From: an uncultured Planctomycetota bacterium
GTDB lineage: Bacteria; Planctomycetota; Planctomycetia; Gemmatales; Gemmataceae
Length of the DNA stretch: 64,000 nucleotides
Assembly (NCBI GenBank): GCA_963849325.1
Contig: CAWKHF010000002.1
Location: forward strand, 288,001-352,000
Direction of reading: 5' to 3'
Shown: positions 55,216-57,133 of the stretch, piece by piece
Layout: the number at the start of each line of letters is the position of its first letter
Numbering within the stretch: the first letter of the stretch is position 1
Position numbers and translations under genes: made by a program
The notes under the pieces: generated by a model
What the model was told of the DNA's origin: nothing
Seen by the model: only the letters and a program-made list of their open reading frames with translations
Database searches by the model: none

Positions 55216-56007
55216 ATGCAAACCGAGATTTCCGCCCGAACGATCAGCTACGACGAAGGCGGCACGGGACCGGCCGTCGTGCTGTTGCACGCCTTCCCGC
55301 TGTCGCGCTCCATGTGGGCGCCGCAGATGGAGGCACTGCGGGACCATTATCGTGTGATCGCCCCGGACCTGCGCGGCTTCGGCGGCAGCAAGGACTTCGA
55401 CGAGCCGCCCGCGCTCGACCAGGTGGCCGACGACGTGGCCGGCTTGCTCGACGAACTGAAGGTCGGCGAGCGCATCGTGCTGGGCGGACTGTCGATGGGC
55501 GGTTATGCGGCGCTGGCCTTCGCCCGGCGACACCCCGGCCGCTTGCGCGGCCTGATTTTAGCGGACACCAAGGCGGAGGCGGACGACGCCGAGGGCAAGG
55601 CCAACCGCGAGCGCCTGATCGCCTTCGCCGCCGAGCACACCGGCCGCGACGTCCTGGAGCAAATGCTCGCCAAACTGGTCGCCCCGGAGACGATGGCCCA
55701 GCACGCGGAGGTGGTCGAGCGCATTCGCCACATCGCGGCGGACCAGACGCCGGCGGCGATCATCGGCGCCTTGAAGGCCATGCGCGATCGGCCGGACTCC
55801 GGCCCGTCGCTGTCAGCCCTCGCCGTGCCGACGCTGGTCGTGGTCGGAGAGAAGGACGTGCTCACGCCGCCGGCGGCCGCGGAGTCGCTGGCGGCGCGGA
55901 TTCGGGGAGCGAAGTTGGTGCGTATCGAGGGCGCCGGCCATCTGTCGAACCTGGAGAAACCCGAACTATTCAACGCGGCCGTGCGCTCGTTTCTCGCCGA
56001 GTTGTAG
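55216..56007 (+). CDS. Alpha/beta hydrolase
   Basis: LLHAFP, APDLRGFG, GLSMGG, GEKD, AGHLSNLE. Confidence 0.92.
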   Translation: MQTEISARTISYDEGGTGPAVVLLHAFPLSRSMWAPQMEALRDHYRVIAPDLRGFGGSKDFDEPPALDQVADDVAGLLDELKVGERIVLGGLSMGGYAALAFARRHPGRLRGLILADTKAEADDAEGKANRERLIAFAAEHTGRDVLEQMLAKLVAPETMAQHAEVVERIRHIAADQTPAAIIGALKAMRDRPDSGPSLSALAVPTLVVVGEKDVLTPPAAAESLAARIRGAKLVRIEGAGHLSNLEKPELFNAAVRSFLAEL

Positions 56008-56020
56008 GAACCTATTGTCC

Positions 56021-56070
56021 CAGCCGCTTGCGGCTTCGCGTATCGCTGCCCGCGAAGCCGCAAGCGGCTG
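56021..56070. repeat. REP-like palindrome family E (AGCCGCTTGCGGCTT)
   Basis: Related copies near 23545-23579, 32171, 46979 and 63068-63102. Confidence 0.85.
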
Positions 56071-56219
56071 TCGGGCTTCGCGATGGTAGCCCTTACATCG
56101 GCTGAGACGTTTTTACAAATCGCGCTCGCCGGCCTCCGTCGTTCCCCCGACGGCGAAAAAGAGCGAAGGTTCGGCAGGCATTCGAGTTAGAACACATTAA
56201 CACATTTGCACCCTTTCTC

Positions 56220-56235
56220 CGGCACGGGCCTTGCT
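56220..56235 (+). promoter_or_regulatory. Sigma54 -24/-12 promoter
   Basis: CGGCACGGGCCTTGCT versus consensus TGGCACGnnnnTTGCW, with exact GG-N10-GC spacing; AT-rich tract upstream. Confidence 0.7.
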
Positions 56236-56245
56236 TAATGAAGAG

Positions 56246-56510
56246 ACGACCCGACCGATTGTGGAAGCGAGGGTCGGGTGCTCGCACGGTTAGCGAACGG
56301 TCTCCCCCACCGCTTCGCTCGCGGTATCCCCGTCCGTGCCGGGCCTGCGATGGTTGTCGGGAGGATCCCCCATCCTCTCGACATAGATCAGCGCGGCGCC
56401 CACCGAAGCGAGTACACCGACAACGCTTCTCTCATCCCCCTCCCTCCTTTTTGGCAAGTCACCGAACCCCCTTGAAGCCCTCCGCTCCCCCGCGGAGGGC
56501 TTCCCTCTTT
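56246..56510 (+). ncRNA. Candidate sigma54-dependent sRNA with repeated UCCCC(C) loops
   Basis: Five hairpins (56249-56279, 56292-56319, 56320-56338, 56355-56383, 56474-56503), four with C-rich loops; the last is followed by CCUCUUUU; no convincing ORF. Confidence 0.5.
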
Positions 56511-56685
56511 TCCGCTCGCCGCACTTCGGAAAAGTGTATGCTTCCTCCGGCCGATCCGCGCTGGTAGAATGTGGCCTAGTCGCTTCGATCCGAAGATCGG
56601 AGAACACGGGACTCTTATCGACCTTGCGGAGCGTCGTCGCGCGGCCGGAAGAACGGCCGGCGCCTCCGACACCGATCCACGAACC

Positions 56686-57133
56686 ATGAATTTTCAAATT
56701 GACGTCTCTTCCGCCCTGCCGTGCCCCCCGGCCGACCTCCCTGCCACCTCCACCGCCGTACCGGAAACGGTCGATCTGCTGCGTCAGATCCTGGAGGTGC
56801 AGCGCGAGCAATTGTCTTACCAGCGGGCTGCCGCCGCGGCGCATGACGTGACCGCCCGCTGGCGCGCTCTTCCTGTCGCGCTGGCAGCAGGACTTTCCCG
56901 ATCTGGCCGAGGGCTGCCGCAAAGCTCTGCCACACCTGGAACGCAGCTATGGCCAACTTCTCCGCGACCTGACCGACAAGCTGACGGAAGAAGAGCACGG
57001 CCTGGATAACGACTTCACCCTACAAGAGTTCCTCGACCGCTTTGGGATGCGCCTCGCCCAACTGGGCACCATCCTCAACCTGGTCGCTCCCCTTGCGGAA
57101 GCCGCCGGCTCGTCGTCGGGCGAATCGGCGTGA
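56686..57133 (+). CDS. Hypothetical protein (frameshifted near 56870)
   Basis: MNFQIDVS..DLLRQILEVQREQL..; second frame continues ..FTLQEFLDRFGMRLAQLGTILNLV; extended -10 TGGTAGAAT at 56562-56570. Confidence 0.7.

Follow-up and report, generated by a model that had tools for sequence, protein, structure and literature searches.

A predicted sigma-54-type small RNA gene with repeated C-rich loops, conserved in Gemmataceae

What occupies the gap of approximately 680 nt between an alpha/beta-hydrolase gene (55216-56007, Pfam Abhydrolase_1) and the next + strand open reading frame (ORF, start near 56686) in a 64,000-nt stretch of DNA from an uncultured Gemmataceae bacterium (GenBank contig CAWKHF010000002.1, positions 288,001 to 352,000; hereafter the window, whose numbering is used throughout)? 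A first-pass annotation had proposed that the gap holds a sigma-54-dependent small RNA (sRNA) whose repeated C-rich loops would make it a multivalent translational repressor, and all of its feature coordinates agreed with the sequence of the gap when we checked them. Comparison with related genomes now places a putative stand-alone small-RNA gene on the + strand at about 56246-56512, and we are highly confident that it is a real sRNA gene of the sigma-54 type. The predicted transcript (56246..56512, + strand, ~265 nt) is indicated by its fold z score and by covariance-model matches, and its 5' end was placed at 56246 by the usual sigma-54 spacing, 12 nt past the -12 GC. For the + strand the folding energy is -123.9 kcal/mol with z = -5.79, a value matched by none of 200 shuffles, whereas the - strand gives z = -1.82 and 10 of 200 shuffles are as good. 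A search of both strands of the 64-kb window with Rfam 15, the database check that the first-pass annotation had left to be made, returned no match at the gathering score, and the comparisons below point to an sRNA family that is conserved, so far uncatalogued and restricted to one order.

By BLASTN the region was found once in its own genome, with two full-length relatives at 69-70% identity among 100 family genomes. These three closest sequences keep the promoter, the hairpins and the C-rich loops despite many single-base insertions and deletions (indels). Because the reach of BLASTN was too small, a covariance model was needed. The first model, R1, was built from the three sequences and covers the RNA body only, starting 6 nt before the predicted start and containing no promoter; the second, R2, was built from 29 aligned R1 matches. 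R1 found the RNA in 54 of 151 family genomes (41 of 90 genera); R2 raised this to 78 of 151 (60 of 90 genera), and a genome has at most three copies. In a sample of the order, R2 matches came from 45 of 135 family genomes and from 4 of 15 genomes of the sole other family; a sample of the class, with 115 genomes from 15 other families, gave none. Within the family, several well-sampled genera are also without an R2 match (0 of 14, 0 of 10, 0 of 9, 0 of 8 and 0 of 7 genomes). The promoter box and the C-rich loops, whose loss in relatives would have spoken against the original proposal, are kept in the relatives that were found.

The promoter provides the strongest independent test of the gene, because the covariance model ends before the box. 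A sigma-54 (-24/-12) promoter (cGGCACGggccTTGCTt) lies at 56220..56236 on the + strand. The near-consensus box first noticed at 56220-56235 (CGGCACGGGCCTTGCT) has the -24 GG and the -12 GC at the canonical spacing of TGGCACG-N4-TTGCW (cGGCACGggccTTGCT) and is conserved in relatives. We took the 30 best model matches as homologues and scored the box in them as GGCA[CT]-N5-NTGC; it was present just upstream of 29 of the 30, though the search model excludes it, and the single match that lacks it is the weakest of the 30 and lies 60 nt from a contig end. The logo over these 29 loci (T26 G29 G29 C29 A29 C27 G25 -N4- T18 T29 G29 C29 W25) equals the sigma-54 consensus. The offset is fixed as well: in 24 of 30 homologues, 18-20 nt separate the GG of the -24 box from the model start, and the gap from the promoter TGC to the 5' arm of hairpin 1 is 13 nt in 15 and 14 nt in 4 of the 26 loci in which the arm was located. 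At 594 occurrences in the 8.16-Mb genome (3.6e-5 per position and strand), the relaxed box is too infrequent for chance to account for its recurrence at such an offset. Even among weaker or partial model matches, the box was found no more than 340 nt upstream in 27 of 32. The genome also carries the genes that a sigma-54 promoter would call on, with one rpoN gene outside the window (PF04552, 196.6 bits) and 23 matches to the sigma-54 activator domain PF00158 in approximately 17 genes, none of them in the window.

Further upstream, the first-pass annotation had mentioned an AT-rich tract. The tract is present, but it is not a mere AT-rich tract: a position matrix over 29 loci resolved it as a conserved, enhancer-like element of 40 bp at 56084..56123 on the + strand (tgGTAnnanTTACA-N15-TTTTTaCAAA), probably an activator site. 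The element has two TTACA words 20 bp apart, the first of which sits inside a GTA-N5-TAC palindrome, and in 23 of 29 loci the refined matrix puts its start 135-138 bp upstream of the -24 GG, within the range of about -100 to -150 that is usual for an activator site. Scores under the 29-locus matrix average 26.8 with a minimum of 13.3, against a maximum of 11.2 for shuffled sequence. When the matrix was built without the window's genome, the window site scored 40.2, while the next best 40-mer in the 8.2-Mb genome scored 27.6 and has no box downstream, and the next best site among the 594 sigma-54-like boxes scored 11.9. A strict pattern of element plus box gave 22 matches in 21 of 151 family genomes, compared with 1 for the reversed control and 0 in five complete sRNA-negative genomes, and 14 of the 22 lie directly upstream of R1 or R2 model matches. 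The position and architecture of the element are those of an enhancer for a sigma-54 activator, to which such a protein would bind.

Two observations concern this control region. In loci L039, L040, L046, L055, L064-L066 and others, the stretch from the upstream element to the promoter contains a conserved block, AAnGACTTG (in one genus CAAGCnGTTGA), ~40 nt before the -24 box; in many sigma-54 promoters this is the position of DNA-bending (IHF-type) sites, and the block is not obvious in the window. In addition, a single match of element plus box, locus L246 (G090:C5:906400-906960), is followed by no C-rich RNA and has instead GAGAGGGA (Shine-Dalgarno), an ATG and an open frame. The match could mark a protein-coding gene of this regulon or be due to chance.

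The predicted RNA comprises five hairpins and one long-range helix, together 53 pairs, which were counted on an alignment of 30 sequences. Hairpin 1 (56249..56279, + strand; ACCCGACC / GGUCGGGU) pairs ACCCGACC at 56249-56256 with GGTCGGGT at 56272-56279; 6 of its 8 pairs are changed on both sides and 86.9% of the cells are paired. The stem had been recognized as a hairpin beginning at the expected start, and it stands, but it is not a plain hairpin: its loop carries GGAAGCG at 56263-56269, which forms a pseudoknot with CGCUUCU at 56424..56430, 155 nt downstream. This pseudoknot helix is 94.3% paired with 3 of 7 pairs changed on both sides, and compensatory variants were found as A-U in L050, L063, L057 and L059, as U-A in L064, and as C-G and A-U in L058. 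In the model, hairpin 1 and the long-range helix together form a pseudoknot that would close the 5' two-thirds of the RNA. Between the two strands stand hairpin 2 (56292..56319, loop CUCCCCC at 56302-56308), with 10 of 10 pairs changed on both sides and 91.4% of cells paired; hairpin 3 (56320..56338, loop UAUCCCCGU at 56325-56333), with 6 of 6 changed and 90.5% paired; and hairpin 4 (56355..56383, loop CCCCC at 56367-56371), which consists of helices 5 and 6 and has 10 of 11 pairs changed and approximately 80% of cells paired, all on the + strand.

The RNA would end at an intrinsic terminator (56474..56512, + strand), in which a 12-bp stem with the loop UCCCCC is followed by CCUCUUUUCC. A terminator scan recovered this hairpin, as the first-pass annotation had drawn it, at 56474-56503 with the DNA tail CCTCTTTTCC. 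It is the best-kept helix of the alignment (helix 7: 11 pairs, 10 changed on both sides, 99.1% of cells paired), and a T-run follows it in 27 of 30 homologues. Over the whole alignment, 90.3% of cells are standard pairs, compared with 40-46% when the partners were slid by 1-3 columns as a control, and 45 of 53 pairs are changed on both sides, compared with 17-20 after sliding; none of 500 shuffles reached any of the observed measures. G-U pairs, which had been claimed to work on the + strand only, are common in the stems that covary (one pair has UG:8 and another GU:9, for instance) and therefore fit that strand alone.

In contrast to the stems, which covary, the loops are constant in sequence, in agreement with the early remark that the loop motif repeats while the stems differ. 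At the DNA level the loops read CTCCCCC (56302-56308), TATCCCCGT (56325-56333) and CCCCC (56367-56371), and the loop of hairpin 2 is UUCCCCC-like in nearly all alignment rows. The longest conserved unpaired stretch is a single-stranded C/U-rich tract at 56431..56447 on the + strand (CUCAUCCCCCUCCCUCC), the candidate main seed, which is unpaired in the minimum-energy fold; it contains the open tract ATCCCCCTCCCTCC at 56434-56447, and CUUCUCnCAUCCCC is nearly invariant over the 30 rows. A further run of five C (GAACCCCCUU, 56467..56471, + strand), which the first-pass annotation did not list, lies just before the terminator; it is unpaired in the fold and appears as GAACCCC in most rows. On average there are 5.7 runs of at least four C per RNA, 4.8 of them unpaired in the minimum-energy fold, and 0.23 runs of at least four G. 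Thus, conserved unpaired seeds, namely the C-rich loops and the CAUCCCC tract, are held on stems of which 45 of 53 pairs covary.

The body that carries these sites is itself variable. A paralogue of ~180 nt was found on another contig of the genome (G000:C6:545469-545650, + strand, R2 48.2 bits). At its locus (G000:C6:545300-545650), a separate sigma-54 box (ACGGCACGCCGGTTGCTTTT) is accompanied by a weak version of the upstream element at -136, and the RNA has four C-rich sites and a terminator whose loop reads UUCCCCC. In one genus (g21, L224-L228) the sole form is ~150 nt long and lacks both hairpin 1 and the pseudoknot. Seven of the 22 strict-pattern matches precede RNAs that were missed by the models but again form a series of hairpins with CCCCC loops and have a terminator with a C-rich loop; one genus has such a differently built RNA in each of its three genomes, and two genomes have one at a second locus. 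Loci L250-L254 (genera g28 and g38) have a form of ~230 nt that starts with UUCGUUCUC and contains 8-10 C-runs behind the same kind of control region, and both this form and that of L224-L228 were missed or barely detected by the covariance models. Because the same element and promoter stand before differently built C-rich RNAs, conservation is higher in the control region than in the RNA body, and the C-rich loops are what the RNAs have in common. That a control region should outlast the scaffold of its RNA is an unusual evolutionary pattern.

As far as sequences can establish it, comparison thus supports the gene, its strand, promoter, enhancer-like element, terminator, structure, constant C-rich loops and taxonomic range; transcription of the predicted RNA itself is what we infer from them. 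How would such an RNA act? We explain the locus, with moderate confidence, as encoding a trans-acting sRNA that is driven by sigma-54 and an activator and silences its targets through the C-rich loops. Sigma-54 RNA polymerase would start at the -24/-12 promoter only with an activator on the two-part site ~140 bp upstream. Since that site is essentially limited to this RNA gene and its paralogue, the RNA would serve a single signalling pathway as its dedicated output, much like Qrr under LuxO or CrcZ under CbrB. The transcript, ended by the intrinsic terminator, would fold into a pseudoknotted 5' domain and a row of hairpins that show five or six unpaired (U)CCCC(C) motifs, along with the single-stranded C/U-rich tract. 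The motifs would serve as redundant seeds that pair with G-rich stretches of mRNA, typically ribosome-binding regions with G-runs, and the pairing would lower translation or stability, probably without Hfq, because G-C-rich pairing should be strong enough alone. Hfq (PF17209) was not found in the genome, which is 84.7% complete, while control genomes gave matches.

For the mode of action taken by itself, we lean, if not strongly, towards pairing between C-loops and G-tracts, and we do so because 6C and sX13, the studied systems of the same design, act by pairing. The C-rich loops of 6C take G-rich ribosome-binding sites as their targets, AGGGGGG of panD among them, and do so free of any chaperone in high-GC bacteria that have no Hfq (PMC6486639). 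sX13 uses three C-rich loops to repress mRNAs that carry G-rich motifs; it does not depend on Hfq, and the motifs are present at the ribosome-binding site of 5% of genes (PMC3771888).

Several results weigh against this explanation. Among 473 ORF starts that were chosen crudely as unambiguous, GGGG is barely enriched in the -18 to -3 window (5.1%, compared with 4.0% in the control window), GGGA occurs at 9.1% compared with 3.4%, and the enriched words GGAG (15% compared with 6.3%) and GAGG (19.5% compared with 8.0%) would mismatch a pure C5 loop. Duplexes of -28 kcal/mol or better with the single-stranded tract were predicted for 54 of 8,044 start-codon windows and for 21 of 7,757 control windows taken 60 nt upstream of the start regions, an excess of ~2.6-fold that purine-rich start regions alone would give. 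No target rose above the control windows, and the best duplex energies were equal (-34.3 at starts and -34.0 in controls). The C-runs are just ~1.6-fold above the expectation from mononucleotide shuffling (3.6), a modest excess because the RNA is 39% C. The alignment on which pairs were counted was fitted to the model's hairpins, which favours them, and only the pseudoknot helix, which is not in the search model, is independent. Finally, 73 of 151 family genomes are without an R2 match, and the Hfq search covered one genome that is 84.7% complete. Given a modest Shine-Dalgarno signal that is made up mainly of GGAG or GAGG with few G-runs, the RNA would be selective for a small class of G-run sites and not a general anti-Shine-Dalgarno mimic.

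The main rival explanation, which we regard as unlikely but worth keeping in view, is that the RNA is not antisense at all and acts as a protein sponge, with its C-rich loops titrating an RNA-binding protein in the way that CsrB/RsmZ titrate CsrA or CrcZ titrates Hfq. Many copies of a short loop motif on a fast-changing scaffold are the design of a sponge RNA, no mRNA target stood out in our predictions, and CrcZ, too, is made through sigma-54 and a dedicated activator. However, we know of no bacterial protein with a preference for CCCC loops. The loops contain neither the CsrA motif (GGA) nor that of Hfq (A- or U-rich), the 84.7%-complete genome yielded no Hfq, and the studied C-rich-loop sRNAs 6C and sX13 act by pairing.

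If pairing is nevertheless the mode of action, the partners might lie beyond start regions, in G-rich nucleic acid of coding or 3' sites or in the arms of dispersed palindromic repeats, where the RNA would act on mRNA stability or processing. In line with this idea, the strongest duplexes genome-wide fall on a dispersed palindromic repeat of G-runs and C-runs, with 129 arm matches, and G-run Shine-Dalgarno sites are rare. But the repeat is self-complementary, so that its G-arm, if transcribed at all, would be paired in its own hairpin, and the precedents 6C and sX13 act at start regions, which together make this variant improbable, more so than the sponge. The repeat (CCCCTCTCCCCCGCTTCGGGGGAGAGGGGTWGGGGGTGAGGGGG plus a mirror arm) is an observation in its own right, with ~65 loci on 11 contigs (for example C1:528717/528770) and none in the window; tandem heptamers (GGAGGGT)n were likewise observed at G000:C9:321676, C3:167183, C2:486294 and C11:41465.

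It could also be asked whether the RNA is a cis-acting leader of the + strand gene that starts near 56686, with the terminator as an attenuator, given that this ORF starts ~175 nt past the terminator. A Pfam scan of 114 flanking ORFs of the 30 loci showed that the neighbours differ between genera (hydrolase, methyltransferase plus sulfatase, SNF2 helicase, FGGY kinase, ferritin, LytB, Ni-insertion protein, tRNA synthetase and kinases were seen) and that the downstream genes are frequently read from the opposite strand. No helix is better conserved than the terminator, and the downstream ORF in the window has no Pfam family. A gene with its own promoter and intrinsic terminator but no conserved neighbour is very hard to reconcile with a leader. 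That the gene is instead the ATG-initiated 109-amino-acid ORF spanning the region (56238-56567), with the RNA features incidental, can be set aside almost entirely, since its ATG is missing in the closest relatives, the three closest sequences differ by at least eight single-base indels, it has no Pfam match and the pattern of conservation is that of paired stems. An antisense ORF of 210 amino acids over the RNA also has no Pfam match, and with these indels the region is not a frameshifted conserved coding sequence, the outcome that would have undone the original proposal.

One further feature of the gap is a long near-perfect palindrome at 56019-56071 (GCCGCTTGCGGCTTCGCG ... CGCGAAGCCGCAAGCGGC), directly after the stop codon of the hydrolase gene, which is probably the hydrolase terminator. 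Arms identical to it also precede the sRNA gene of another genus (L066), pointing to a shared element resembling repetitive extragenic palindromic (REP) sequences.

Returning to the trans-acting sRNA under sigma-54 control, we wondered which activator might drive it. Eight activators of the genome carry a DNA-binding helix-turn-helix (HTH), and these were compared with 2 sRNA-positive and 3 sRNA-negative complete genomes. Seven of the eight do not track the sRNA in this five-genome panel. The sole one that does is a GAF-AAA+-HTH protein of 1,079 amino acids (G000:C5:1061114-1064353), whose orthologues are present in 62 of 78 sRNA-positive and 29 of 73 sRNA-negative genomes (odds ratio 5.9, for related genomes that are not independent), while a control activator is present in 53 of 78 and 51 of 73, respectively (odds ratio 0.91). 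Because the genomes are related and the protein is missing from 8 of the 21 genomes with the element-plus-box pattern, it is a candidate activator and a lead only. Two side observations touch on regulators. A sigma-54 box with a weak look-alike of the element (score 9.8) was found at G000:C7:72380 on the - strand, ~1.4 kb upstream of the gene for a REC-AAA+-HTH activator (C7:68865-71000), whose presence does not follow that of the sRNA across the five genomes compared. Genes for hybrid histidine kinases or receivers adjoin the sRNA gene in three genera (L053:3-1250, L056:2319-3269 and L066:1-885); these kinases share only ~41% identity with each other, so that they may not be orthologues.

How does the predicted RNA compare with known systems? 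Among C-rich-loop sRNAs, the closest in design is 6C of Actinobacteria (RF01066; B11 in Mycobacterium), which resembles it in hairpins with loops of at least five C and in a high-GC host, 6C having, in the available text, several G-rich mRNA targets without Hfq or ProQ (PMC6486639). 6C is also the best Rfam match, below threshold, at 28.5 bits compared with a gathering score of 47 (E = 0.13), and since this match (56463-56507) covers the terminator hairpin only, the RNA is not a 6C member. In contrast, 6C is ~60-90 nt long with two loops and belongs to another phylum, whereas this RNA is ~265 nt long with five or six C-sites and a pseudoknot. To our knowledge, neither a sigma-54 promoter nor the upstream element is a feature of 6C. 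The resemblance to sX13 of Xanthomonas lies in at least three stable stems with apical loops of four or five C. sX13 represses mRNAs that have G-rich motifs near the start codon, and the ~5% of genes with such motifs at the ribosome-binding site (PMC3771888) compare with GGGG at 5.1% of 473 starts here. However, there is no sequence relationship and no Rfam match to sX13 here, the present RNA has no fixed neighbours, and control by sigma-54 and an enhancer is specific to it.

A third group with C-rich loops, the cuckoo RNAs of Alphaproteobacteria, differs in loop motif, promoter type and phylum, and the ar14/cuckoo model (RF02344) gave 17.2 bits compared with a gathering score of 58.8 (E = 0.9), so that the RNA is not an ar14 member. 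Under relaxed search settings, 6C and ar14 were the sole Rfam families with a suggestive score, each well under its threshold. Cuckoo RNAs (ar14 and relatives such as CcsR) carry C-rich, CCUCCUCCC-type loops on repeated hairpins, and a genome has several paralogues. In planctomycetes, no described regulatory sRNA was found in a search of openly available literature. A 2022 review, in its available text, tabulates 8 sRNA families for the whole Planctomycetes-Verrucomicrobia-Chlamydiae (PVC) group, and the available text of a 2025 survey of sigma-54 regulons covers planctomycete protein genes and leaves sRNAs unmentioned.

In its control, the gene resembles the sigma-54-dependent sRNAs Qrr1-5 (activated by LuxO), CrcZ (CbrB), GlmY (GlrR), NrsZ (NtrC) and Pxr, which have a -24/-12 promoter with an activator site ~100-150 bp upstream, an activator regulon that is largely or wholly the sRNA gene or genes, and one to three paralogues per genome. 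It differs from them in having no sequence or structural likeness and other seeds. Qrr needs Hfq, and CrcZ is an Hfq sponge. By analogy with LuxO and Qrr, we tentatively suggest, as a possibility well short of the main explanation in confidence, a dedicated signalling arm in this order of bacteria in which one activator has one to three sRNA genes as its sole targets; the RNA bodies would be free to be rebuilt as long as multiple UCCCCC loops are kept, and the RNAs would gate the ~5% of mRNAs with G-run start regions. If true, this would be the first defined post-transcriptional regulon in planctomycetes. The gene is found in about half of one family in one to three copies per genome, and it offers a ready experimental system in which the promoter, enhancer, structure and seed motifs are defined and the 40-bp element could serve as a DNA bait for the activator and hence the signal. 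It would add an independent lineage to the recurring high-GC design of C-rich loops directed against G-rich start regions. Judged by these comparisons, the predicted RNA appears to join two known kinds at once, the sigma-54-dependent sRNAs and the C-rich-loop sRNAs, and it brings to them a covarying pseudoknot and a control region that outlasts the scaffold.

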